Below, one piece after another: positions 2,869-32,000 of a stretch of DNA of 32,000 bases. The number at the start of each line of letters is the position of its first letter. Within the stretch, counting starts at the first letter, position 1. The translations under genes were made by a program, and so were the position numbers. The notes beneath the pieces were generated by a model. It did not search any database. It was not told the DNA's origin and saw only the letters and a program-made list of their open reading frames with translations. The stretch lies in contig DIRZ01000003.1 of NCBI GenBank assembly GCA_002421785.1, positions 60,001 through 92,000 on the forward strand, written 5' to 3'. The stretch comes from Candidatus Saccharimonadota bacterium (GTDB taxonomy: Bacteria > Patescibacteriota > Saccharimonadia > Saccharimonadales > Saccharimonadaceae).

Positions 2869-3804
2869 CTAGCCTCGCGCCATCAGATAATCAAGCAGCG
2901 CCATGCGGGCGTATAAACCATTGCCTGCCTGTCGGAAGTAGAGCGCGCGCGGGTCGCGGTCGACATCTGTCGTAATCTCACCGACGCGCGGCAAGGGGTG
3001 CATAATAATGGCGCTCGGGTTCATGACGTCAAGCACGTTCTGATCAATCACGAACTCTTCATCCTGCATCGACTCACCGGGGTCGAACCGTTCTTTTTGT
3101 AGCCTTGTCCAGTAGACGACGTCTGCTTGCTTGACCGAATCGTGTACGTTATCTGACTCACGAAACGAGGTGCCTGCCTGGGTAAGTTCCTGCTTGATGT
3201 CATCGGCGATGCGAAATGATGGTGTAGAAACGAAGGTAACGTCGTTGCCTGGGTACAGCGCGAGTAGACGCGCTAGTGACCGTGCTGTGCGGCCCTGACG
3301 CAAATCACCGCCTATCGTGACACTCAGGTCGTTGAGCCGTCCGAAATGCTCGTAGATAGTGTAGCTGTCGAGGAGCGCCTGAGTTGGATGCTCCCCTTTC
3401 CCATCACCGGCGTTAATAATTGCCATGTGGTCTGCCGCTACCGCAGCGGCACGCGCAGCTGCGCCAGTTTCGGGATGCCGAATGACGAGTGCGTCGACAT
3501 GATAATTGTTGAACATCTGTATGGTATCTTCGAGCGTTTCACCCTTGGCTGCGCTGGAAAATTCTTTGGCGTTTTCGGTTTGATCTTTGCCGATGCCTAG
3601 CTTGGCCGCAGCAAGACCAAAGCTGCTACGAGTTCGAGTGGACGGTTCATAAAAAAGCGAGTACATTTGCCTGCCGATATGTCGAGAAGCTAGTTCGCGG
3701 CGTTCGTCAATAGTACCGTTGTCTAGGCGGCGCATCTCGCTTGTTTTGTCAAAAAAATAACCCAGATTTTCTGGGCTGAAGTCCTTCGTTGAAATAATAT
3801 TCAT
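2869..3804 (-). CDS. pyrB: aspartate carbamoyltransferase catalytic subunit
   Basis: Motifs STRTRSSF, VIRHPETGAA, HPTQALLD, GDLRQGRTARS and HPLPR fit ATCase rather than OTCase, which has HCLP. The first ATG is at 3804; the ORF-track start at 3819 is a TTG. Confidence 0.85.
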   Translation of the reverse strand: MNIISTKDFSPENLGYFFDKTSEMRRLDNGTIDERRELASRHIGRQMYSLFYEPSTRTRSSFGLAAAKLGIGKDQTENAKEFSSAAKGETLEDTIQMFNNYHVDALVIRHPETGAAARAAAVAADHMAIINAGDGKGEHPTQALLDSYTIYEHFGRLNDLSVTIGGDLRQGRTARSLARLLALYPGNDVTFVSTPSFRIADDIKQELTQAGTSFRESDNVHDSVKQADVVYWTRLQKERFDPGESMQDEEFVIDQNVLDVMNPSAIIMHPLPRVGEITTDVDRDPRALYFRQAGNGLYARMALLDYLMARG

Positions 3805-3883
3805 ATATGTATCATACAACGTGCTTATGCTACCGGCAACTGCCCGGCTGGCCCCCTAGCACCAAAAGAGCTATAGTAACACT
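3805..3883. promoter_or_regulatory. divergent promoter region; both -10 boxes lie 6 nt from their ATG (leaderless geometry)
   Basis: Minus strand: TATGAT (3811-3816), 6 nt, then the pyrB ATG at 3804. Plus strand: TATAGT (3872-3877), 6 nt, then the ATG at 3884. Neither gene has a Shine-Dalgarno. The -35 elements are weak (TTGCCG for pyrB). Confidence 0.45.
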
Positions 3884-4777
3884 ATGAAGATATTTTCAGT
3901 TGCGGTGTTGATATATAATCCCAAAAGCACGGGCGATGCTGAACCAAAGGCAAAAGTAGTCGCTAAAGAGCTTGAGGCACTGGGGCTGCGGACGGTGCTT
4001 TCTCCTACCCGACATGCTGGTCATGCCATCACTTTGGCGCGAGAGGCTGCGCTTAGCAGTCCGCGACCTCTCATTGTATCGGTGAGCGGAGATGGCGGGT
4101 ACAACGAGGTTATAAATGGCGTGATGTCAGCATTGGAGAAGTCTTCGCAGGTCCGGCCCGTCGTGGCGGTTGTGGCCGCAGGAAATGCCAATGACCATAA
4201 GCGCACGATGCGCGATGATGTGTCGCTGGCCGAGCTGGTTCGCACCAAGAAAGTAAAGCCGCTCGATTTATTGCGCCTGACGGTGCGGTATGATAGCGAA
4301 ATTGTTCAGCGGTATGCTCACTCCTATATTGGACTTGGGCTTTCCGCTGAGGGTGGTAAGGCTATAAATGAAAGCGAGAAGGGCGGTTTACACGAGGCAA
4401 ATGCAATTTTGCAAACACTTCGCAACCACGAGCCGTTCATGGTACGCCGTCCAATGGGCTGGCGTCGCTACGATAGCCTCGTATTTGCAAATATTCCTGA
4501 GATGGCGAAAGTTATTAAATTAAGCAAACATCGCCGAGTTCGCGATGGTCAATTTGATGTGCTTGCGATCCCCCACCATTCTTGGTGGAACGTCGCCGTT
4601 ACACTCCTTAAATCTGTTGTGGGTGTTCACCCCGGCGCAAAGCGTCGTAGACATTTCGATGCGCATGTGCGCAATTGCCCACTCATTCAGCTCGATGGCG
4701 AGGTTATCGAAGTGCCAAAGGAATATCACCTTCAAATTGCTGTACGTAAGCGGGTGCTTGAATCGTTATATGACTAG
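3884..4777 (+). CDS. diacylglycerol kinase-family lipid kinase (YegS/DagK-like)
   Basis: 297 aa. SVSGDGGYNEVINGV matches the GDG(T/G) catalytic-domain motif of the DAGK_cat family, and AAGNANDH follows it. Confidence 0.7.
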   Translation: MKIFSVAVLIYNPKSTGDAEPKAKVVAKELEALGLRTVLSPTRHAGHAITLAREAALSSPRPLIVSVSGDGGYNEVINGVMSALEKSSQVRPVVAVVAAGNANDHKRTMRDDVSLAELVRTKKVKPLDLLRLTVRYDSEIVQRYAHSYIGLGLSAEGGKAINESEKGGLHEANAILQTLRNHEPFMVRRPMGWRRYDSLVFANIPEMAKVIKLSKHRRVRDGQFDVLAIPHHSWWNVAVTLLKSVVGVHPGAKRRRHFDAHVRNCPLIQLDGEVIEVPKEYHLQIAVRKRVLESLYD

Positions 4778-4787
4778 CCAAATAAGC

Positions 4788-4813
4788 AAATATCCCCTCG
4801 TAAGGGGATATTT
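4788..4813. terminator. bidirectional hairpin terminator between convergent genes
   Basis: ATATCCCCT (4790-4798), loop CGTA, AGGGGATAT (4803-4811). The hairpin is flanked by an A-run and a T-run, and sits between the lipid kinase (+) and rpsI (-). Confidence 0.8.
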
Positions 4814-4829
4814 GTTATGCGATGTACGC

Positions 4830-5231
4830 TTAGCGCTTTGAGTATTGTTCGCGCTTACGAGCACTGCGAAGGCCGTATTTCTTGCGTTCTTTTTCGCGTG
4901 GATCGCGACGCAATAGTTCTGCTTTCTTGAGCGTGCTTCGAAGATCAGGCGCGCCAACGGTGATTGCTTTTGCAATCGCCATTTTAATAGCGTCTACTTG
5001 ACCTGCGAGTCCACCACCGCTGACGCGGATAGTGACATCAAACTCCTGCTGTTTACCAACCAGCGCAAGCGGGTCAGTAATTTCAGCGAGCATTGTTTTG
5101 TTGCCTGACAAGTAGTCGGCAGCTGGCTTGTCGTTAATTGTCACATTGCCCTTGCCCTTGATTAGGCGAGCGCGTGCTGTGGCGGCTTTACGACGGCCAA
5201 GACCGTAGTCGTATGTTTTAGCATCAGCCAT
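4830..5231 (-). CDS. rpsI: 30S ribosomal protein S9
   Basis: 133 aa. GGGLAGQVDAIKMAIAKA and the C-terminal ...ARKREQYSKR are typical of uS9. It follows rplM. Confidence 0.95.
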   Translation of the reverse strand: MADAKTYDYGLGRRKAATARARLIKGKGNVTINDKPAADYLSGNKTMLAEITDPLALVGKQQEFDVTIRVSGGGLAGQVDAIKMAIAKAITVGAPDLRSTLKKAELLRRDPREKERKKYGLRSARKREQYSKR

Positions 5232-5232
5232 A

Positions 5233-5670
5233 TTACTTTACCTCAACTTTCTCAGGTTTTTGAGCCGCGTGGGCGTGTTCGCTGCCTGCAAAAATCTTGA
5301 GGCGAGCCATTCGCTCTGGGCTTAGTTTGTTCTTTGGGAGCATCCCGCGAACAGCAGCTTCAATGATGCGCTCTGGGAACTTCTCGCGAACTTCCTTCAG
5401 CTGCGCGTCCTTGATACCACCTGGGAATCCTGAGTGGCGGTAATAAATCTTATCGGTTTCTTTCGCACCTGTAACCGGCACTTCAGCAGCATTGATAACG
5501 ACGACATAGTCACCGCTGTCGATGTGTGGTGTGTAGGTAGGCTTGTATTTGCCAATAAGATACTTAGCAATTTGTGTGCTTAGTCGGCCAAGCGTTGCAT
5601 CTTTTGCGTCGATGAGAATCCATCGGCGTTCGATTTCGCTGGTTTTCTGTGAATAGGTTTTACCGGCCAT
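5233..5670 (-). CDS. rplM: 50S ribosomal protein L13
   Basis: 145 aa with the uL13 signature WILIDAKDATLGRLSTQIAKYLIGK. Confidence 0.95.
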   Translation of the reverse strand: MAGKTYSQKTSEIERRWILIDAKDATLGRLSTQIAKYLIGKYKPTYTPHIDSGDYVVVINAAEVPVTGAKETDKIYYRHSGFPGGIKDAQLKEVREKFPERIIEAAVRGMLPKNKLSPERMARLKIFAGSEHAHAAQKPEKVEVK

Positions 5671-5672
5671 GA

Positions 5673-6113
5673 TTAGTTGGCCTCCTTCTTAGCTGCTGGC
5701 TTTTTTGCCGCCGCAGGTTTAGCTGTTACCGTTTCGGGCTTAGCGACTGCTTTGAGTTCGTCTACGAACTCAACAACAGCCATCTGAGCGCCGTCACCAA
5801 CGCGAAGGCGGGTGCGTACAACGCGGATGTGACCGCTTGTGCGACCAGTTAGCTGTGGTGCAATCACGTCAACGAGCTTAAAAGCTGCGATTTGAGTAGA
5901 AAGTCCAGCAATAACCATACGTCGATTTGCGAGGTCACCGCGCTTTGCTTTGGTGATTAATTTTTCAATGTACCGTACGAGCTCTTTGGCTTTAGGAAGT
6001 GTGGTTTCAATCCGCTCTTCCATCACTAGACTAGTAGCGAGGCCTTTCACCAGCGCACGGCGTTGGTCAGTTTCCCGACCGAACTTGCGTCCTTTATATC
6101 CGTGACGATGCAT
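5673..6113 (-). CDS. rplQ: 50S ribosomal protein L17
   Basis: 146 aa starting MHRHGYKGRKFGRETDQRRALVKGLATSLV. It follows rpoA and has a Lys/Ala-rich C-terminal tail. Confidence 0.95.
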   Translation of the reverse strand: MHRHGYKGRKFGRETDQRRALVKGLATSLVMEERIETTLPKAKELVRYIEKLITKAKRGDLANRRMVIAGLSTQIAAFKLVDVIAPQLTGRTSGHIRVVRTRLRVGDGAQMAVVEFVDELKAVAKPETVTAKPAAAKKPAAKKEAN

Positions 6114-7037
6114 TTAAAGCTCCAGTTCTGCGAGTTTATCTTTAACTTCGTCAAGCGCTTTGCTGCCGAAGCCCTTAAGCTCACGTAGGTCTTGTTCGCT
6201 GAGCGTTACAAGATCGTGGACAGTGCGAATATCGTTGTTGATAAGCGCGTTGGCTGTACGTGCACTAAGGTTTAATTCTTCAATTGGGGTGTTGAGTTCG
6301 CTTGTTTCGTCGTCAACTTGAGTACCGAGGGCAGGTGCTGACTCAACAGTTGTTGCGCCGGCAAGTGCCGAGTACTGGTTAACGAGGATAGCACTTGCTT
6401 CCTCAAACGCTTCGCGTGGTGACAATGTACCGTCTGTTTCGACAGTCATTTCGAGCTTGTCGAGGTTGGTTTCTTGGCCAACGCGAGTTGGGTCGACTTT
6501 GAAGCGTACGCGAGTTACTGGGCTAAACATTGCATCAAGCGCGATCATGTCGCTGTGGACACGGGATTTACTTGATTCTTCGATAGCGTGGTAACCACGG
6601 CCTGCTTCGACCACAAGGTCAATGACGACAGTTTTCTTTGGGTCGTCAATAGTACAGATGACTTGCTCTGGGTTCAAGATTTCGACATCAGCGTTCGCCT
6701 TGATATCAGCAGCGGTGACTTCACCGGCGCCCTTCTTCTCAAGACGGAGTTCAACTGGTTCGTCACTGTGAACCTTTACATTTACACCCTTGAGGTTCAG
6801 CATGATGTCGACGACATCTTCCTGAACACCAGCAACGGTAGTAAATTCGTGGGTTGCACCTTCAATGCGGAAAGCGACAATTGCACCACCACGAATGCTC
6901 GAAAGCAGAACGCGGCGAAGGCTGTTGCCTAGCGTGTTGCCGTAACCGGCGTGAAGGGGTTCGATGACAAACGTGGTTGCGTTTGTGTCGGTGTCTTCAA
7001 CTCGTGAGAGCGCTGGATTGTGAATTACTTTAGACAT
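6114..7037 (-). CDS. rpoA: DNA-directed RNA polymerase subunit alpha
   Basis: 307 aa. N-terminal domain GNTLGNSLRRVLLSSI and C-terminal domain LNLSARTANALINNDI. It sits in the canonical rpsD-rpoA-rplQ context. Confidence 0.95.
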   Translation of the reverse strand: MSKVIHNPALSRVEDTDTNATTFVIEPLHAGYGNTLGNSLRRVLLSSIRGGAIVAFRIEGATHEFTTVAGVQEDVVDIMLNLKGVNVKVHSDEPVELRLEKKGAGEVTAADIKANADVEILNPEQVICTIDDPKKTVVIDLVVEAGRGYHAIEESSKSRVHSDMIALDAMFSPVTRVRFKVDPTRVGQETNLDKLEMTVETDGTLSPREAFEEASAILVNQYSALAGATTVESAPALGTQVDDETSELNTPIEELNLSARTANALINNDIRTVHDLVTLSEQDLRELKGFGSKALDEVKDKLAELEL

Positions 7038-7057
7038 ATTATATCTCCTTACCCTTT

Positions 7058-23107: not shown

Positions 23108-23214
23108 GGATATAATTCTCCTACTTATTATTAGTTATTGCTTGGTACGCGAGCTGTGGTTAGTCGTGAATGGGTGTTCACAAATAACAAACCGCGCCCG
23201 AGCGTATGACGTTC

Positions 23215-23243
23215 ATTATAAGGGAAACGCGTCACGATGTAAA
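23215..23243 (-). promoter_or_regulatory. sigma70 promoter for tuf
   Basis: On the minus strand: TTTACA (23238-23243), 17 nt, TATAAT (23215-23220). The leader is about 100 nt and ends with the SD AGGAGA. Confidence 0.7.
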
Positions 23244-23287
23244 CACCTTTGTACGGTGTTACGGGACGACCGCGCTATTGCATAGTG

Positions 23288-23323
23288 AAAGCCCCCGCCT
23301 CTCACGAATGAGGTGCGGGGGCT
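23288..23323 (-). terminator. terminator of the GC-rich membrane-protein gene
   Basis: GCCCCCGC (23291-23298) pairs with GCGGGGGC (23315-23322), with extra inner pairs. Only a short U-run (TTTCAC) follows on the minus strand. Confidence 0.55.
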
Positions 23324-23340
23324 GTGTGACCTGCGCGCGA

Positions 23341-23736
23341 TCAGTTGTCGGCGTACAGGTAATACCTAGTGCCGTTGGCGTCGATGGTGGTGCTGTAGAC
23401 GACGAGCTTGGTGCGCTTGTACAGCCACGGAAAGACCAACACGCCGATGAAGCCAATCACAGTTCCCGCCAGGGCTGCTATGTTCGACGGCTTGGCGAGG
23501 AGCCACCAATCGTACGAGACGATGGTGACAATGCAGCTCAGGGTGGCACCGAGTGCCCAGTACCAGCGCTTGCGGGCGCGCCTCTGGAGCACCTGGAGGT
23601 CCTCGTCGCTGAGACTGTCGTCGGCCTTGGAGCCACGCGAGATCGCGTATGCCGAGTAGGCCATAGTGCCGTACATGCCGGCCATCCACAAGTAGATGAG
23701 GGTCATGAGGGTCATGAGAACGCCGGTGATGAACAT
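23341..23736 (-). CDS. hypothetical membrane protein in a GC-rich islet
   Basis: 131 aa from the ATG at 23736, preceded by AAGGAG-ACTT. It starts MFITGVLMTLMTLIYLWMAG... and has 3-4 hydrophobic spans. Codons are GC3-rich. Hand-counted GC is 34/60 and 40/60 in two blocks. Confidence 0.6.
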   Translation of the reverse strand: MFITGVLMTLMTLIYLWMAGMYGTMAYSAYAISRGSKADDSLSDEDLQVLQRRARKRWYWALGATLSCIVTIVSYDWWLLAKPSNIAALAGTVIGFIGVLVFPWLYKRTKLVVYSTTIDANGTRYYLYADN

Positions 23737-23855
23737 AAGTCTCCTTAAGGCTAGTGTTGTCATAACGACAGAACGAACGACGCGCGTACAGGATGTACAC
23801 ACATAGTTATATTATAGCATATCAATGCCATAAAAGCAATATCCGGAAACCTTAA

Positions 23856-25356: not shown

Positions 25357-25806
25357 TCAGATTAAATACACCATGAGAAGCATCGTAGTGCCGACTGCTG
25401 CGTAGCCGATACGGTAGGTTCGCGCGTGAAAGCCGGAGTGAACGCGGCGAAGCGTAAGGATGAGGCCGCTGAGGACAAAAAACTGTCCATAGCCAAAGAT
25501 ATTATGAATAACGGGAAACGTATCGAAAGGGAATGCCCCAACACCCACCAAGCATATGGCAACCACCACCAACGCCGCTTGTAGCTGCCGTGCGCCGCTA
25601 CTGCTGTGTCGGCGACGCATTTCGTCAGCTATGCGCGTGGCCAGCAATATCAGCACCATGGCGGCGAGTATCATCGTCCCATTGAATATAAACGACGCAG
25701 TGCTGTTGCCTTCGCCGAGCCTGCTAAGGTGCCAGTTTGCCCACTTCGTGTCCTGCGTGAGAAGCATACTGAGTGCAAAGCCAGTTGTAATAATACCCAG
25801 GAGCAC
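25357..25806 (-). CDS. hypothetical 4-TM membrane protein
   Basis: 149 aa with a GTG start and an in-frame stop 14 codons upstream. It lies 56 nt downstream of the Nudix gene and may be the last gene of that operon. Confidence 0.5.
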   Translation of the reverse strand: MLLGIITTGFALSMLLTQDTKWANWHLSRLGEGNSTASFIFNGTMILAAMVLILLATRIADEMRRRHSSSGARQLQAALVVVAICLVGVGAFPFDTFPVIHNIFGYGQFFVLSGLILTLRRVHSGFHARTYRIGYAAVGTTMLLMVYLI

Positions 25807-25862: not shown

Positions 25863-26384
25863 TCATACTGAATCTGCTGCACGCAGTATAGCGATGTCGC
25901 GGGCTTTCATCATCGCGAGGCCGGTCGCGCTACCATCTTCGTCTAGAGTGTCACTACTTTCAATCCATTCAATTGCCTGCTCGATTGTTTCCGCCCAACA
26001 GAGCTCCATACCCTCGGACTGTTCTTTTTCGGTTAGTTCAGTGCCCACAAAATCGCCCGCTAGCGCCGTGTAGCAGTACGAAATTTGGTGCATGCCGCAG
26101 TAGTAACGGTTTTCGGTCACTGTGCCAAGTTCGGCTACGTCCGTGATAGTGTAGCCGGTTTCTTCGCGAAGCTCGCGATGAAGCGCCGCGAGAATGTCTT
26201 CGTCCTCGTCTATTCCGCCACCAGGCAGTTTGTACGAACCTGTTACAGTGAAGTGCATAACAGCAATCTGATCACGATCATTACGCATCACGGCACGTGC
26301 GGCTTGCCGTGTGTAATTAACTGATGTGTCAGTGGTCTCGTGAAGCCCTATATCGTGCTGATCGAGGTCGAGAATAAGATTCAT
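25863..26384 (-). CDS. Nudix hydrolase
   Basis: 173 aa from the ATG at 26384. The Nudix box is GGGIDEDEDILAALHRELREETGY (GX5EX7REUXEEXGU). Confidence 0.85.
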   Translation of the reverse strand: MNLILDLDQHDIGLHETTDTSVNYTRQAARAVMRNDRDQIAVMHFTVTGSYKLPGGGIDEDEDILAALHRELREETGYTITDVAELGTVTENRYYCGMHQISYCYTALAGDFVGTELTEKEQSEGMELCWAETIEQAIEWIESSDTLDEDGSATGLAMMKARDIAILRAADSV

Positions 26385-26406: not shown

Positions 26407-27078
26407 TTAGAGGGCTTTATCCCTCTTCTGAAAAAATGCTCGAAATACCGCACGGCTCCCCGTGTTTTCTTGTTTTACTTCCTCGCCCTGATCGCTGGCC
26501 AGCTCAAAATCGACCGCATCCATCATCGATACAAATGTTTCGCGTGGGAGGAGTGTTTGGGGTAGTCCTTCTTGGGTAAGAACTGAGTAGCCATCCGGCG
26601 AAGTTACTGTGTACGTATCATCCCAAGCTTTATTGGTGAATATGTTGAGTAGAACAAACCCCGAAGGCTTTGTTACTCGAGCTAACTCTTCGAGTGCTCG
26701 TACGTATTCTTCTATGGTGTTCGCTTGGTGCAGGACACCAGTCGTAACAACAATATCGAATACCTCATTATCGGCGGGAATGGCGAGGATGGAACCTTCG
26801 TGAATATCGGCAACCAGCCCGAGTGAATCCAGACGCGCATGCGTGGCGACTAGCATGCCAGGGTTAACGTCGACACTCGTTACCAGATGGCCAAGACTGG
26901 CGAGTAATTCCGAATGACGCCCGCCCCCACACCCTAAATCGAGTACACGGGCATGAGGATGAGTCTCCGTAAAATGTTCCATAAACGCTACGATTCGAGG
27001 ATCGGCTGGTTTACTTTCAAAATATCGTGTGATGTCAGGTGAATTCCAAAATTGACGCTCCGACCGTGTGATAGCCAT
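26407..27078 (-). CDS. class I SAM-dependent methyltransferase
   Basis: 223 aa from the ATG at 27078, 1 nt after the upstream stop. Motif I is VLDLGCGGGRHS; post-I is VTSVDVNP. An alternative ATG at 27102 exists. Confidence 0.8.
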   Translation of the reverse strand: MAITRSERQFWNSPDITRYFESKPADPRIVAFMEHFTETHPHARVLDLGCGGGRHSELLASLGHLVTSVDVNPGMLVATHARLDSLGLVADIHEGSILAIPADNEVFDIVVTTGVLHQANTIEEYVRALEELARVTKPSGFVLLNIFTNKAWDDTYTVTSPDGYSVLTQEGLPQTLLPRETFVSMMDAVDFELASDQGEEVKQENTGSRAVFRAFFQKRDKAL

Positions 27079-27079
27079 A

Positions 27080-28177
27080 TTATTGCTTACCTTTCTTGCC
27101 AACGGATTCTACGAGATATGTTTCCGAGAACAAAGACACATGGTAGGTGTTCATGTCTAGCTCAGCAAATTTTTTTGAAATGCGCTCAGGTTCAGAAGTG
27201 ACCGCGAAGAATCCTGGGCCCACAGATGAAAGCGAGATCATAGCAACTGCCTCGTCGTCGGCAAATGGACGTAGCTGTTCGGCAATATCATTAATTCTAG
27301 GTAACACGAACGAGCAGTTCTTGATACTGCCCATATTCCAGCGGTAATCAAAAATTAGCCTCTTACAGCTATCAAACTTGCCCAGTTGCAGGTCGGGTAA
27401 CACTTGATGCACTAGGTGGTAAGCGATGTCCTTGCCATAGTGTTCGCCGGTTGAAATGAATCCATCCATGTTGTCTTCTTCAAGCTGCATTAGTGTGCGG
27501 GAATCTGGATGCTGGAAGTCTATCGGTATACCAATGACAACTGAGTAGCGTTCCGGAAAGGCAGAGCGCATAATCGGCGTGGCTTCGCCAGCCAACACAA
27601 TAAGGCTGCCGCTGTAGTTTCCGCAAACTGCAGAACCACCGATACATTGTACTGCTACGAGTGTATCATCGCTGCCATCAAGCTCCTCCCCATGGTTCTG
27701 AGCACAGTACAAACATAACGCATGCGGATCAATAGGGCGCCCGTACAGCTCATTGATAGCTGATGCGACGGCTGCTATGGTGCCGCTGCTAGAGCCAAGT
27801 CCGCAGTGACGCAGGCTAAGTTCGTCCTCTACATCAATTTGCAAGGTATCACGAATGCCGAGGGTTTGCCGCATCAGAAGAGCTGCGTGTAGCACCAACG
27901 ACCTACGGCCGGTTCGTTCGCTTATCTCGATCTCTCGTCCCGTGAATGGTACGATACGTACACTAACTCTCTTGAAGAGAGCGACACAGACATCAATTTG
28001 ACCTGCGGTGTACACAAGTGAGTCGTTAGTTGCGATTTTAGCGGGATCGAGCGCCATTGCTTCGAGTCTCGCAGGATATTTAATACATATCGACTCCCCC
28101 TGTTTCACGGCGTTTCGGTTGATTGTACAGGTATTCGTAATAGTACCAGCCGGAAATGTTGCAACGATTTTAGGCAT
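27080..28177 (-). CDS. GHMP-kinase-fold protein, tentatively beta-RFAP synthase / C-glycoside synthase-like
   Basis: 365 aa from the ATG at 28177, with SD AAGGGAGAG and an 8-nt overlap with the upstream gene. The central motif HCGLGSSSGTIAAVASAINELYG is GHMP motif II-like. The N-terminal YPARLEAMALDP resembles the (T/S)PSR(L/I)HxxLxD motif I recall for beta-RFAP synthases. Confidence 0.5.
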   Translation of the reverse strand: MPKIVATFPAGTITNTCTINRNAVKQGESICIKYPARLEAMALDPAKIATNDSLVYTAGQIDVCVALFKRVSVRIVPFTGREIEISERTGRRSLVLHAALLMRQTLGIRDTLQIDVEDELSLRHCGLGSSSGTIAAVASAINELYGRPIDPHALCLYCAQNHGEELDGSDDTLVAVQCIGGSAVCGNYSGSLIVLAGEATPIMRSAFPERYSVVIGIPIDFQHPDSRTLMQLEEDNMDGFISTGEHYGKDIAYHLVHQVLPDLQLGKFDSCKRLIFDYRWNMGSIKNCSFVLPRINDIAEQLRPFADDEAVAMISLSSVGPGFFAVTSEPERISKKFAELDMNTYHVSLFSETYLVESVGKKGKQ

Positions 28178-29177
28178 GCTGCTCTCCCTTGGCGTCTTGT
28201 AGTCGGCGTAGGTTCTCCTGGGTCTTGTCGATGAGCACGTCAAGAATATCCGGCGTGTAGGTGCCGCTCCCTACGCTGTCGTCGCCCCGTAACTTGAAAT
28301 TATCTTGGGCGATTCGTCGGTGTGGGAAACGAAATTTCTTGAGCTTTTGGAATATAGCTATCGCAGCATCTTGACCCGCACTATCATTACCCTCAATAAG
28401 TAAATCAACGACGCTCCGACCATTTTGCCGATCAGTGCATTGCTGTATCCATGCGCGCTGGTCAGGGCTTAAATAGCGAACATTGTCGGCGTAGTAATCC
28501 ATATATACCTTGTCTGCACTGCCTACTCCCCACAGCACATAATCTGTTGCGATTAGCTGTAGTTGCGCACCACCCGCACCCGCATAGGAGGTTCCCCCTA
28601 TTTCCACGGCATCAAAATATGGCCGCAACTCATTGGTAAAGTATGTCGCAGTTACGCCACGACGTACTGCAATAATTGACTCAATGAGAGTATCGAGACT
28701 CTTATCAATAGCAGCGAGTCCTGTTTGAATGTCATTTTCCGCGAACACTCGCATGGCATGTTCGGCATCAGCAGAGCTTGTTCGAACAGAGTCAATAAAC
28801 AGCGCTTCCGCATCGCTACCCGTAAATGAGCGTTGACGCTCATCGCTTGGGTTAACATGGGCATATGTAGTGACTGTTCCTCGTGGAACTGTGTTCGCGA
28901 TTCTCCCCAGGGCCATAAGTATGCGCTCGAAGCCATTAACTGATTCAATATAATTCTCCCCGTGACGTATCCCGGAGCTCAATATGAAATCCGAATCGCG
29001 CAGAGAGGCTAATGCATCTGCTGCTGAGAACTCGCTAGGTACCGTGTCTGTAGCGATTCCGTTTGCAATATTGCGAAGTGTGCCGACATCTGCGCGCTCA
29101 TTTATTAGCGGAAGCTCACGCAGTCGTTCGTCAAGACCAAGTGGGTCTAGCTTACGAACAGATTCATAGTCCATCAT
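28170..29177 (-). CDS. PrnB (monodechloroaminopyrrolnitrin synthase)-like / TDO-superfamily heme protein, tentative
   Basis: 335 aa. Segments NPSDERQRSFTGSDAEALFIDSVR, ELRPYFDAVEIGGTSYAGAGGAQLQLIATDYVLWG and FRFPHRRIA...VGSGTYTPDIL resemble what I recall of PrnB and the TDO proximal-His motif (WRxxH...GTGGSSG). Confidence 0.45.
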   Translation of the reverse strand: MMDYESVRKLDPLGLDERLRELPLINERADVGTLRNIANGIATDTVPSEFSAADALASLRDSDFILSSGIRHGENYIESVNGFERILMALGRIANTVPRGTVTTYAHVNPSDERQRSFTGSDAEALFIDSVRTSSADAEHAMRVFAENDIQTGLAAIDKSLDTLIESIIAVRRGVTATYFTNELRPYFDAVEIGGTSYAGAGGAQLQLIATDYVLWGVGSADKVYMDYYADNVRYLSPDQRAWIQQCTDRQNGRSVVDLLIEGNDSAGQDAAIAIFQKLKKFRFPHRRIAQDNFKLRGDDSVGSGTYTPDILDVLIDKTQENLRRLQDAKGEQHA

Positions 29178-29219
29178 ATGTTGGGGCCTCTCTCCACTGC
29201 GTGGATCTGTTTTTTATTA

Positions 29220-29270
29220 TTTATACAGTAGAAGCACTTGTTTGTCAATCGATAAAAAATATGTTATATA
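29220..29270. promoter_or_regulatory. back-to-back divergent promoters sharing one -35 region
   Basis: Plus strand: TTGTCA (29242-29247), 17 nt, TATATA (29265-29270). Minus strand: TTGACA (29243-29248), 17 nt, TATAAA (29220-29225). The two -35 hexamers overlap by 5 nt. Confidence 0.6.
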
Positions 29271-29302
29271 TAGCTTAATATAAACGCACATAAGGAGTAG
29301 GT

Positions 29303-29926
29303 ATGATATTTGTAACCGGTTACCATGCTTCCGGTAAATCATTCCTCGCACGCAAGCTCGCATCAGATTTTAATTTATTTCATGTCGAAACAAGCGCAAT
29401 CGTACAAGCAGCTCATGCAATTGATGCTCCTGAGCGAAGTCTTGGCGATTGGGCTCGCGATATGGAGCATCGTTTCGGGGAGGAATTCTTTGATGACATG
29501 ATCGTCGATGCCGCTGCGCAGGAGTACGTTTGCGAGCTTGCCAGCGGCAGGCAATACAATGATATCATTATTACAGGAAATCGTTCTCTTCGTGGTATAC
29601 GATATGCGGCGTCTGGTTTGTCTGAAAAAATTCCGTTTCTAAAACCCGAGGCACATATTCTATATATTGATGCTGACGAGTCTGTTGCGTACGAGCGGTT
29701 CAAATCTCGAAATCGGCATGAGGGTGATGCGACCATGTCTCTCGAGGACTATCGTGAAATAACTCTCGACGAAGACCAGCGGGGCCTCACTGAGATTCGA
29801 GATAGTGCTGACTATTGCATTACAAATAACGGGACACTCGAGGATCTCGTATACCGAGCCAGTGAAATGCTGGGCGAGAGCGCCGTCCTTGCACGTGAGA
29901 CATATCGCGACTATCGTCATGTATAA
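29303..29926 (+). CDS. P-loop NTPase, nucleotide/nucleoside kinase-like
   Basis: 207 aa with a strong SD (AAGGAG). The Walker A motif is GYHASGKS, at the extreme N-terminus as in small-molecule kinases. ITGNRSLRGI follows. Specificity is unknown. Confidence 0.55.
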   Translation: MIFVTGYHASGKSFLARKLASDFNLFHVETSAIVQAAHAIDAPERSLGDWARDMEHRFGEEFFDDMIVDAAAQEYVCELASGRQYNDIIITGNRSLRGIRYAASGLSEKIPFLKPEAHILYIDADESVAYERFKSRNRHEGDATMSLEDYREITLDEDQRGLTEIRDSADYCITNNGTLEDLVYRASEMLGESAVLARETYRDYRHV

Positions 29927-29956: not shown

Positions 29957-30517
29957 ATGAGTATTGCGTACGTTACCGGTAATCAATCGAAGTTTCAAAA
30001 CGCTACTGCATTTTTGCAGACAGTAGGCGTTACCATTCATCAAGCTAGTGTGTCTGTCGATGAAATACAGGCAGGCACCGGCATAGAGGTAGCCATACGA
30101 AAAGCACACGACGCTTATAATCAGCTTCAGGAGCCGTTGTTTATCAATGATGCTGAGTGGGCAATTCCTGCGCTTGGCGGCTTCCCGGGGCCATACATGA
30201 AATATATAGTCGGCTGGTTGACGCAGCAGGATCTACTGAAACTCATGGAGGAGAAGTCGGACCGTAGCCTAATACTTCGCGATACCGTCGTATATTACGA
30301 TGGCTCCGTAGAAAAGGTCTTTACCCACGAAGTTCATGGTAAAATTCTTACATCACCTCAGGGCGAGCCCCGTGGACCATTTGTCACGCAGATATTTAGT
30401 CTACGCCAGGATGGTAAGAGTATTGCAGAGGACACAACTATAGGGTTTAGTGAGGATGAGGCAATACTCTGGGCGGAGTTCGCAACATGGCTAAAAACGC
30501 ATATCCCCCAGGCCTGA
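29957..30517 (+). CDS. Ham1/RdgB-family non-canonical purine NTP pyrophosphatase (ITPase-like)
   Basis: 186 aa with SD GGGAGG. Family motifs: VTGNQSKF (TGNxxK), VDEIQ and INDAEWAIPALGGFPGPYMKY. Confidence 0.75.
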   Translation: MSIAYVTGNQSKFQNATAFLQTVGVTIHQASVSVDEIQAGTGIEVAIRKAHDAYNQLQEPLFINDAEWAIPALGGFPGPYMKYIVGWLTQQDLLKLMEEKSDRSLILRDTVVYYDGSVEKVFTHEVHGKILTSPQGEPRGPFVTQIFSLRQDGKSIAEDTTIGFSEDEAILWAEFATWLKTHIPQA

Positions 30518-30589
30518 GACCCTAACTTCTAAGTATGTAGTGTGGCCGACAATTTTGTGTCGACTAGCTATTTCGGTTATGATATAATC

Positions 30590-32000
30590 ATGCGCCTACC
30601 TAACAACCCGACCATCTATGAAATACACACTGCCGCGTACCTAAACGAACTCGCCGTCCGCGACAAAACGAACATTTATCTGGACACAATCCCCGATGAT
30701 GAGCTGAATCGACTCATGACTCTCGGCATTGATGCCGTTTGGTTGATGGGCGTTTGGCAACGGAGTGCTGCGGCTGTGGCTGTGGATATGGCAAATGAGG
30801 GGCTGCAGGCAGAGTTTCGCGCAGTCCTGCCAGATTTTACTCCAGAAGATGTCATCGGTTCTGCCTATGCCGTGCAGGATTATACTGTTGATGCTCGGTT
30901 TGGGGGCGACGATGCATTAGCGCGACTACGTGAGCGACTTTCTCATCGCGGAATTGGCCTGATTCTCGATTTTGTACCCAACCATACCGCCCCAGATCAT
31001 GTGTGGACACGTGAACATGTAGACTACTACATTCATAGCGACAGCAATGCCGCTCTGCGTGAGCCGGATGCCTATGCTGCTGTTGGTGATCACAGTATTG
31101 CCATGGGGCGCGATCCTAACTCAGCCCCCTGGCCAGACGTGTTACAGATGAATGCGTTTTCACCAGGCTACCGCAAAGCAACGGTAGATACTTTAGGGCG
31201 TATTGCATCGATGAGCGACGGCGTTCGCTGCGACATGGCCATGTTGATGCTAGATGATGTCGTACAGCGCACGTGGGGACAGCTCGCAGGTGAGCCGCTC
31301 GCAACCACCTATTGGCAGGACGCCACGCATGCTGTGCGCGAGCAGCACCCTGACTTTACCTTCATCGCCGAATGTTACTGGGACACTGAGCGTACGCTGA
31401 TTGAGCAGGGCTTCGACTACTGTTACGACAAGACACTCTACGACTACCTTGTTGCGAATGATCCGGCCGGTGCGTGCGACTACCTCGCGCGAACGGCTGA
31501 CATCCAGTCGCACATGCTTCATTTCGTCGAAAATCACGATGAGCCTCGAGCAGCAGCTAGGCTCCCCCTTGACCAATCGATGGCGGCTGGCGCAATAACA
31601 GCAACATTGCCTGGGGCAAGCTTGCTCCATCATGGGCAAGTAGAGGGTAAACAGATAAAAATACCCGTACAGCTGGGGCGTGGGGCCCATGAACTGCCCT
31701 GTTCGGCTACTCGGGATTTCTACGGTAAGTTATATGCTTGGCTCAAGGAGTCAAATATTCGAGATGGAACCTGGTCACCACGCGCAACCCAAGATTCGGC
31801 AATCATTACCTACGAGCTGCAGCACGAGCATACCGTCGCCATGCTGCTGGTTAATTATTCGGAGACGCGCACCACCATTGATCTTCCCATTCCCATAGCT
31901 AACTATAGTGATGTGCTAGCGGACAACGACGGCGCGCCCATCATAGTTCAAGCGGCCGCCGACAAGCAGCTTCAGCTCGGGCCATGGCAAACGCGGCTGC
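30590..32000 (+). CDS. GH13 alpha-amylase-family glycoside hydrolase, C-terminus beyond the right edge
   Basis: My translation is open from the ATG at 30590 to the window end (470 codons). GH13 regions: LILDFVPNH (I), GVRCDMA (II), FIAECYW (III), FVENHDE (IV). TATGAT (30578-30583) lies 6 nt upstream of the ATG and there is no SD. Confidence 0.85.
   Translation, partial: MRLPNNPTIYEIHTAAYLNELAVRDKTNIYLDTIPDDELNRLMTLGIDAVWLMGVWQRSAAAVAVDMANEGLQAEFRAVLPDFTPEDVIGSAYAVQDYTVDARFGGDDALARLRERLSHRGIGLILDFVPNHTAPDHVWTREHVDYYIHSDSNAALREPDAYAAVGDHSIAMGRDPNSAPWPDVLQMNAFSPGYRKATVDTLGRIASMSDGVRCDMAMLMLDDVVQRTWGQLAGEPLATTYWQDATHAVREQHPDFTFIAECYWDTERTLIEQGFDYCYDKTLYDYLVANDPAGACDYLARTADIQSHMLHFVENHDEPRAAARLPLDQSMAAGAITATLPGASLLHHGQVEGKQIKIPVQLGRGAHELPCSATRDFYGKLYAWLKESNIRDGTWSPRATQDSAIITYELQHEHTVAMLLVNYSETRTTIDLPIPIANYSDVLADNDGAPIIVQAAADKQLQLGPWQTRL

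Follow-up and report, generated by a model that had tools for sequence, protein, structure and literature searches.

PrnB, the monodechloroaminopyrrolnitrin synthase, is encoded in the pyrrolnitrin cluster (prnABCD) together with the halogenases PrnA and PrnC and the Rieske oxygenase PrnD. According to a 2024 study in the Journal of Biological Chemistry, the amine of the substrate ligates the heme iron of PrnB (PMC11791213). In FbPrnB, a PrnB from Flavobacteriales, G210, G211 and S319 hold the substrate carboxylate together with a heme propionate, and Y104 narrows the indole pocket; the route proposed for PrnB runs via ring-rearranged, carboxylated intermediates and then decarboxylation (PMC11791213). 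ForT, of formycin biosynthesis, is a decarboxylative C-glycoside synthase that acts on aromatic carboxylic acids and 5-phosphoribosyl 1-pyrophosphate (PRPP) (PMC8183095). Here we describe a PrnB-family gene and a ForT-like gene coupled to it in a Candidatus Saccharimonadota bacterium, a member of the Candidate Phyla Radiation (CPR). The genes lie in a stretch of 32,000 nucleotides (positions 60,001 to 92,000 of contig DIRZ01000003.1, assembly GCA_002421785.1), below called the window.

The window encodes, at 28170..29177 on the minus strand, a full-length PrnB-family protein of 335 amino acids (predicted His-ligated heme, IDO fold), the resemblance of which to PrnB is far above chance. Its gene starts with ATG and is the first of its operon. 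The Pfam PrnB model (PF08933) matched the protein with 90.3 bits at a gathering cutoff of 27 (E=1.4e-25). In a phmmer search of PDB sequences, the sole strong targets were two PrnBs, FbPrnB (9dfg, E=2.4e-38) and Pseudomonas fluorescens PrnB (2v7i, E=1.1e-36). The alignment spanned residues ~6-327, nearly the whole protein, so that the similarity is full-length (E ~1e-37, 28-32% identity). An AlphaFold2 model, built on 23 homologs, had a predicted local distance difference test (pLDDT) value of 93.5. The model has an IDO-like helical fold, and its top 12 PDB matches in Foldseek were all PrnB chains (template modeling (TM) score, 0.83-0.90; root mean square deviation, 2.7-4.6 Å; E ~1e-17). The next in rank were SO4414 and human IDO1 (TM 0.65-0.74, E ~1e-8 to 1e-7). 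An identical protein is present, in the same gene order, on a 194-kb metagenome contig of the Joint Genome Institute (JGI) and in several Logan assemblies. Named homologs of this protein and of the product of the adjoining gene belong to Candidatus Saccharibacteria, Saccharimonadales and other Patescibacteria.

A first-pass annotation of the window, made from its letters, had likened this protein to the tryptophan 2,3-dioxygenase (TDO)/PrnB superfamily. The open reading frame (ORF) and every motif quoted there were found in the translation: QRSFTG at residues 115-120, SVR at 130-132, ELRPYF at 183-188, GGTSY at 194-198, VLWG at 214-217, FRFPHRR at 282-288 and VGSGTY at 302-307. This superfamily assignment was borne out by the alignments and the profile searches with PrnB, and not by the TDO motif that had been cited for it. 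The PrnB matches were strong, but the Pfam IDO model gave only 14.4 bits (E=0.017), below its cutoff of 26, so that a match to IDO/TDO at the family level fails. The IDO-like protein SO4414 matched in the phmmer PDB search at E=0.033. The protein thus shares the heme-dependent aromatic oxygenase superfamily and the fold with IDO and TDO, although its sequence similarity to them is marginal.

The candidate proximal heme ligand, from alignment and conservation, is His286 in FRFPH (CAC codon at 28320..28322, minus strand). In the PDB alignments, the KFRFPH segment of our protein falls in the proximal-His region of the solved PrnBs, over RFRAPH in the P. fluorescens protein and over KFRKPH in FbPrnB. 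This His, for which the first-pass annotation had proposed the same role, was invariant in 23 of 23 database homologs and in 28 of 28 distinct cassette-linked homologs from genomic loci (described below), down to 28% identity. Other invariant residues include Y105, R116, F118, T119, R185, P186, F188, G203, G303, S304 and G305. In the phmmer PDB alignment, G210, G211, S319 and Y104 of FbPrnB correspond to G203, A204, S304 and Y105. Among the 28 cassette-linked homologs, G203, S304 and Y105 were invariant, and A204 was kept in 25 and replaced by Ser in the remainder. The protein has in common with PrnB the proximal His and the glycine-rich loop and Ser that hold the carboxylate, and with FbPrnB the Tyr of the pocket. 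Since the substrate-holding residues are conserved, the most economical inference is that an aromatic amino acid is bound in the fashion of PrnB.

The glycine-rich loop itself reads GAGGAQ here and GPGAVE in P. fluorescens PrnB. An xxGGAQ loop was found in 131 of the approximately 211 PrnB-family sequences fetched, a sample biased towards the query profile, and GPGAVE in 13. The family is small. A PrnB profile searched against 1.84 billion cluster representatives gave 712 matches at E<=1e-3, of which 283 reached E<=1e-30, and we estimate ~280-450 clusters at 50% identity. In a rough neighbor-joining tree, the two solved PrnBs paired outside the cassette-linked sequences. The latter were mutually 28-33% identical and are thus as far apart from each other as from canonical PrnB. 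The family call by itself is no novelty, since some Saccharibacteria homologs are already named 'PrnB' or 'PrnB family protein' by automated annotation.

FbPrnB of 9dfg (identical to P0306; locus L096, 8001-9053, GCA_020635475.1 JACJZR010000013.1; also L095) likewise lies outside any prnABCD cluster. Its neighbors encode an AMP-binding enzyme, a pyridoxal phosphate (PLP)-dependent aminotransferase of the DegT/DnrJ/EryC1 type, a UbiA prenyltransferase, glycosyltransferases, four radical-SAM/SPASM/B12 proteins and a PAP2/VCPO-like protein. The structural model provided by FbPrnB may therefore belong to a third pathway that has yet to be characterized.

No flavin halogenase or Rieske oxygenase gene was found among the ORFs of the window, within 6-8 kb in approximately 90 related loci, or among the recurrent neighbors. 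As prnA, prnC and prnD are not co-located with it, the gene does not belong to a pyrrolnitrin cluster, and no chlorinated substrate is expected for its product. The first-pass annotation had been right that genes like prnA/prnC and prnD are missing from the window. Its description of the gene as 'stand-alone' holds with regard to pyrrolnitrin genes only. The gene is otherwise the first cistron of a packed operon and part of a conserved cassette of five genes. In contrast to PrnB of the prn cluster, its partners are genes for a ForT-like GHMP-fold protein, a methyltransferase, a kinase and a Ham1-family protein, and its host is a CPR bacterium.

The next gene of the operon (27080..28177, minus strand) encodes a GHMP-fold protein of 365 amino acids that resembles ForT and beta-RFAP synthase (Pfam GHMP_kinases_N, E=1.2e-9; gene call on an identical contig). 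It is translationally coupled to the PrnB-like gene: its ATG overlaps the TAA stop of that gene by 8 nt (ATGCCTAA). One base separates its stop from the start of a gene for a class I S-adenosylmethionine (SAM)-dependent methyltransferase of 223 amino acids (26407..27078, minus strand; Pfam Methyltransf_11/25, E ~1e-18; gene call). An AT-rich divergent intergenic region of 125 bp (29178..29302) separates this operon from two plus-strand genes. These encode a small P-loop kinase of the nucleotide-kinase type (Pfam AAA_17/18/33) with 207 amino acids, at 29303..29926, and a divergent NTP pyrophosphatase of the Ham1/ITPase family with 186 amino acids, at 29957..30517 (Pfam Ham1p_like, E=4e-21; PDB 1b78, E=1.3e-17).

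These five genes form a conserved cassette of CPR bacteria and an archaeon. PrnB patterns recovered four species-representative genomes, all of Saccharibacteria. In all four, the PrnB-like, GHMP-like and kinase genes were consecutive and the Ham1 gene adjoined on the opposite strand; the methyltransferase gene was usual. Through three GHMP-like homologs we found three other contigs. On a 1.46-Mb soil contig, PrnB-GHMP is followed by the methyltransferase gene on the opposite strand. The order is Ham1-kinase-PrnB-GHMP-methyltransferase in a Candidatus Vogelbacteria genome and GHMP-methyltransferase-kinase-Ham1-PrnB on contig LKMJ01000002.1. We regard the last contig as archaeal, since genes for a histone-fold protein, for topoisomerase VI A and B and for deoxyhypusine synthase lie on it too. 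A metagenome scan seeded by two invariant GHMP-family peptides added 80 loci, which were annotated with purpose-built hidden Markov models (HMMs). The distinct loci numbered 73, and 33 of them were well flanked (at least 2.5 kb on each side). Of these 33, 30 have Ham1, 28 have the methyltransferase and 26 have the kinase. In 22 of the 31 PrnB-bearing loci, the PrnB-like gene immediately precedes the GHMP gene on its strand, and relatives of the kinase adjoined the GHMP-like gene in most loci. Two candidate explanations were rejected here. Ham1 and kinase genes as chance housekeeping neighbors do not fit a linkage that persists despite changes of gene order across phyla and domains. The idea that most loci carry a cassette without PrnB was also abandoned, as the smaller number of PrnB matches (70 vs 731) may in part mirror faster divergence and as U32 and PLP enzymes (see below) stand in for PrnB where it is really missing.

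Several cassette genes are fused. An ORF at 4825-7053 of locus L030 encodes 742 amino acids, of which 33-377 are PrnB-like and 388-741 are GHMP-like. A second, independent fusion of the same two parts is P0237, with 726 amino acids. The GHMP-like protein is fused to the methyltransferase in P0184, L053, L067, L072 and L074. The object of interest exceeds a single gene: it is a cross-domain cassette, supported by fusions, with interchangeable entry modules, one with heme and the other with a U32-family protein and a PLP enzyme (see below). Our list of PrnB-family fusion proteins comprises L030 4825-7053, P0237, P0253 and P0280. PrnB was also seen behind a HAD-phosphatase-like N-terminus (627 amino acids, in a high-GC organism) and behind a HATPase/anti-sigma-like N-terminus (510 amino acids).

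The other entry module emerged when leftover ORFs were clustered across all loci. Loci without PrnB encode a Peptidase_U32 protein of ~376 amino acids (PF01136, E=1.7e-11) and a class I/II PLP enzyme of ~354 amino acids (PF00155, E=1.2e-23), which is nearest to HisC (E=1e-34) and to the threonine-phosphate decarboxylase CobD (E=3e-32). In the 33 well-flanked loci, PrnB alone was present in 17, U32 and/or PLP in 14, both in none and neither in two (Fisher exact p=1.5e-7, uncorrected for shared ancestry). L026 was the single locus among all 73 with PrnB plus U32/PLP. The PLP gene fills the slot of PrnB, immediately upstream of the GHMP gene and overlapping it. Loci of this kind include L028, L033, L046, L058, L063, L080 and L083 (for example, 3753-4940 and 4941-5984 in L083). 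Some PrnB-less loci also carry an Asp/Glu racemase gene (L053, L054, L067, L072, L074, L078 and L087).

Characterized U32 members (UbiU/UbiV, TrhP and RlhA) are O2-independent hydroxylases. Because loci carry either the heme enzyme or a member of this family with a PLP enzyme, almost without overlap, PrnB and U32+PLP are suggested to be aerobic (heme/O2) and anaerobic routes into the same or a similar intermediate. Ubiquinone synthesis likewise pairs O2-dependent flavin hydroxylases with the anaerobic U32-family UbiU/UbiV. The cassette resembles such aerobic/anaerobic pairs in that PrnB-like or U32 proteins are used, nearly mutually exclusively, before the same genes. It differs from the UbiU/UbiV case in that its U32 protein comes with a PLP enzyme.

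The coupled GHMP-like protein carries the motifs YPARLEAMALDP, RHCGLGSSS and LSSVGPGFFA. AQNHGEE, PVQCIGGSA and DYRWxMGSIxNCSF are invariant in the 21 sequences of its family. Its AlphaFold2 model had a pLDDT of 91.8, and the top three structures in Foldseek were ForT entries (8aoz, 8ap0 and 6yqq; E 4e-17 to 1e-15; TM 0.66-0.67 on the query and 0.73-0.74 on the target). True kinases, such as homoserine kinase and IspE, followed at E=5.6e-14 or weaker. In ForT, R19 and the H99-S104 loop bind the pyrophosphate of PRPP, and T106, G134/R135, S139 and S142 bind its 5'-phosphate (PMC8183095). R37, H124 and S131 of our protein align with R19, H99 and T106 of ForT in a single alignment, and all three are invariant in the 21 sequences. 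LSSVGPGFFA is closer to LSVTGPACFA of ForT than to SGSGPS of kinases. The protein is therefore like ForT, PyfQ and beta-RFAP (RHP) synthase in the R19 and H99 equivalents and the phosphate loop, with ForT as the best structure match. It is unlike ForT and beta-RFAP synthase in its own set of invariant motifs and in its score, 21 bits against a cutoff of 328. When the PDB sequences were searched with the family profile and with the archaeal member, the alignment was limited to the phosphate-loop region. No ForT relatives were retrieved from proteins with a piece of ForT reconstructed from an alignment. To judge from the sequence data, the class of this enzyme is beyond the reach of sequence methods.

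Very probably, the protein is a PrnB-family heme protein with a functional link to the GHMP-like and methyltransferase genes of a conserved cassette. We infer the substrate, the product and the GHMP chemistry of this cassette as follows. The PrnB-like enzyme would hold heme through His286 and bind an aromatic L-amino acid, likeliest unhalogenated L-Trp, through G203, A204 and S304. By analogy with PrnB, it would oxidize, rearrange and decarboxylate this substrate to a pyrrole-type or another electron-rich heteroaromatic compound. The product would be handed directly to the coupled, and sometimes fused, GHMP-fold enzyme, which, like ForT and beta-RFAP synthase, would join it to ribose 5-phosphate from PRPP. 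The ForT class uses an electron-rich aromatic (carboxylic) acid, the kind of compound that a PrnB-type reaction, passing through ring-rearranged carboxylated intermediates, could supply. The SAM methyltransferase, sometimes fused to the GHMP enzyme, would methylate the product. The P-loop kinase and the Ham1-like NTP pyrophosphatase, here together with a NUDIX hydrolase, would control how the nucleotide-like compound is phosphorylated. Elsewhere, in other lineages, the U32-family protein and the HisC/CobD-like PLP enzyme would feed the identical downstream genes in place of PrnB.

The best explanation overall, to which we would give slightly less than an even chance, is that the PrnB-like protein is the O2-dependent heme entry enzyme of a CPR/DPANN cassette and does not serve pyrrolnitrin synthesis. 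(DPANN stands for the archaeal phyla Diapherotrites, Parvarchaeota, Aenigmarchaeota, Nanoarchaeota and Nanohaloarchaeota.) The full mechanism, with a ribonucleotide derived from Trp, is more tentative and somewhat doubtful. A pathway that would build a methylated C- or N-ribonucleotide with its base from Trp or another aromatic amino acid, with U32+PLP as the entry in anoxic lineages, is likewise rather unlikely. If it is true, the PrnB-GHMP fusion implies that a PrnB-type reaction is completed, or pulled forward, through immediate capture of its product. Such capture could also explain the inactivity of isolated PrnB in vitro.

A number of observations weigh against this explanation. To our knowledge, CPR bacteria are generally without heme synthesis, and heme would therefore need to be scavenged. 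Because the cassette-linked PrnB-like proteins share no more than 28-34% identity with either solved PrnB, they may differ from PrnB in substrate or in reaction. PrnB is also an uncertain chemical template, since the purified canonical enzyme is inactive and its reconstitution in vitro has failed (PMC11791213). The GHMP-like protein is far below all curated cutoffs (NF040726, 21.1 bits with a cutoff of 328; TIGR00144, 19.2 bits with a cutoff of 113.5). The best HMM E-values for its family were 2.1e-13 with homoserine kinase and 1.2e-13 with beta-RFAP synthase. An equivalent of the 5'-phosphate site G134/R135 of ForT was not located, as no alignment spans the region. There the query reads AQNHGEE...CIGGSA, with two acidic residues in AQNHGEE that recall the Mg-binding Glu of true GHMP kinases. 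Because this invariant motif sits in the R135 region, a true kinase stays among the options, and the GHMP-like enzyme could possibly be ATP-dependent. PLP enzymes of the HisC/CobD type typically use phosphate esters, which suits a kinase pathway no less than a nucleotide pathway.

An alternative that joins a hydroxylase to a kinase is, in our view, unlikely but serious. The PrnB-like enzyme would act like TyrH and SfmD, heme-dependent aromatic hydroxylases from its own superfamily, or as an oxidative decarboxylase, and the GHMP-like protein would be an ATP-dependent kinase for the new hydroxyl or a side-chain hydroxyl. The methyltransferase would modify the phospho-compound, and the pathway would end in a phosphorylated, methylated amine (for instance, a head group or a piece of a cofactor) and not in a nucleotide. 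The synthesis of the cobamide linker offers a parallel in PduX, a GHMP Thr kinase, and CobD, a PLP decarboxylase, and the PrnB-less loci pair the GHMP-like gene with a HisC/CobD-family enzyme, the characterized relatives of which use phosphate esters. The homoserine- and shikimate-kinase HMMs match the GHMP-like family as well as the beta-RFAP-synthase HMM does; the homoserine-kinase and beta-RFAP-synthase models each match all 21 members about equally, the latter over ~240 residues. The invariant HGEE appears to stand where kinases put their Mg-binding Glu. The exchange of a heme oxygenase for U32, a family of hydroxylases, would also suit a hydroxylation step. The structures nearest to the GHMP-like model, however, are those of ForT and not of kinases. 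Its RHCGLGSSS, PxRL and S-V-x-GP motifs are ForT-like and unlike PLGSGLGSSAA and SGSGPS of kinases, and the conserved nucleotide-type P-loop kinase and Ham1 would be left without an obvious role.

Three further explanations are each very improbable in our view. The protein could be an ordinary PrnB whose end product, 3-(2-aminophenyl)pyrrole made from free L-Trp, would serve for instance as an antimicrobial, and its neighbors would be unrelated genes of nucleotide housekeeping. The family membership and the retained amino-acid-binding residues would agree with this, and Trp can serve PrnB as an alternative substrate (PMC11791213). The linkage of five genes, however, outlasts extensive shuffling of their order in CPR phyla and an archaeon, and the PrnB-GHMP fusions, the translational coupling and the same neighbors behind an alternative front end argue against bystanders. 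A dioxygenase of the TDO/IDO type could open the indole ring and feed a PRPP step like that of quinolinate phosphoribosyltransferase in an NAD-like salvage. The shared superfamily and fold, IDO and SO4414 as the next-best structures and the weak Pfam IDO match are in its favor, but the E-value for PrnB is more than 30 orders stronger in sequence and the TM-scores are 0.88 vs ~0.7. Moreover, kynurenine-pathway genes (kynurenine formamidase, kynureninase and 3-HAO types) were not found among the recurrent neighbors. The cassette might also be a nucleotide-based defense or toxin system against phages or the host, with Ham1 and NUDIX as immunity or signal processing. KomB, a Ham1-like defense protein, is among the PDB matches of the Ham1 gene product (8zsg, E=3.7e-8), and self-protection by NUDIX/NTP pyrophosphatases is known for nucleoside antibiotics. 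PADLOC, in contrast, gave generic methyltransferase and NUDIX domains, a weak partial VakA match for the kinase, and none for PrnB, GHMP or Ham1. The cassette adjoins core genes (the ribosomal operon here; GreA, DnaK and aminoacyl-tRNA synthetases elsewhere) and not defense islands. If the product is a toxic nucleotide, a defense role would overlap with the heme-entry explanation preferred above.

In the library covered by a full-text search, no paper was found that connects Saccharibacteria, Patescibacteria, CPR or DPANN with PrnB or with RFAP-synthase-like genes, or that describes the cassette. The whole pathway has a realistic chance of being new. CPR and DPANN organisms, which are ultra-small symbiotic bacteria and archaea, have tiny genomes and almost no biosynthesis, and the cassette is kept across both and even fused. 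Because it is kept in such genomes, it is likely to be important for the symbiotic lifestyle, perhaps as the source of a cofactor, a signal or a toxin. The PrnB family would gain a second, possibly older, biological role, and the question is raised of how a heme enzyme is supplied with heme in heme-less organisms. The natural PrnB-GHMP fusions and soluble homologs open new ways to study a heme reaction whose reconstitution in vitro with purified enzyme has failed for decades. If the ForT-like step is real, it would provide a new natural C-nucleotide scaffold and a new pair of biocatalysts.

As for the other cassette proteins, the P-loop kinase gave a full-length PDB match to the adenylate-kinase-related SSO1041 (3h0k/3lw7, E ~5e-5) and a match to adenylate kinase 9 in the P-loop region only (E=1.4e-5). 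The Ham1-like protein scored 112 bits with the NCBIfam model for XTP/dITP diphosphatase (cutoff, 203). The canonical base-binding motif of the Ham1 family is GFGYDP; at this place, the protein reads GEPRGPFVTQIF. This difference hints at an altered nucleotide specificity.

Behind the methyltransferase gene, the operon continues with a NUDIX hydrolase of 173 amino acids (25863..26384, minus strand; Pfam NUDIX, E=1.1e-14; gene call) and a DUF998 membrane protein of 149 amino acids (25357..25806, minus strand; Pfam DUF998, E=4e-10). The DUF998 gene is the final minus-strand gene before the DEAD helicase. The NUDIX hydrolase is not conserved in the cassette, with a relative in two other loci only, and no DUF998 relatives were found in the other cassette loci. 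In most other Saccharibacteria loci, PrnB is directly preceded by a protein of ~185 amino acids (MKLYYATT...) with no Pfam or NCBIfam match (L001 7317-7868, L003 7314-7853, L005 6312-6932 and ~20 other loci). It is missing from the window, where NUDIX and DUF998 stand instead.

Upstream of the PrnB-like gene, by eye, a minus-strand TTGACA-17 nt-TATAAA lies at ~29247-29219 and a Shine-Dalgarno-like GGAGAGAGG ~8 nt ahead of the ATG; both are matches to a consensus only. A promoter scanner did not list TTGACA-17-TATAAA, because its rule demands T at the last -10 position, and its matches overall were no more than those in shuffled sequence.

Proteins of ~157-170 amino acids with a GreA/GreB C-terminal domain recur beside the cassette in many CPR loci, in two clusters of 19 and 15 loci (L007 5095-5598, L039 2-619, L047 7501-8145 and ~30 other loci). 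They were considered as Rnk-type regulators, a candidate that was rejected because their length suits ordinary GreA.

The other ORFs of the window are those of an S10/spc/alpha-type ribosomal protein operon, SecY, EF-Tu, a DEAD-box helicase, OTCase and similar proteins; a search of the window for tRNA genes found none. A gap of ~750 bp (23108-23855), with EF-Tu on one side and the DEAD-box helicase on the other, holds only unannotatable overlapping ORFs (180 amino acids, plus strand; 153 amino acids, minus strand), for which the best domain match was a weak one with two transmembrane segments. At the other end (~30540-32000, plus strand), gene calls on the identical contig place a gene of the alpha-amylase family with 495 amino acids; no complete ORF is listed there because this gene continues beyond the end of the window.

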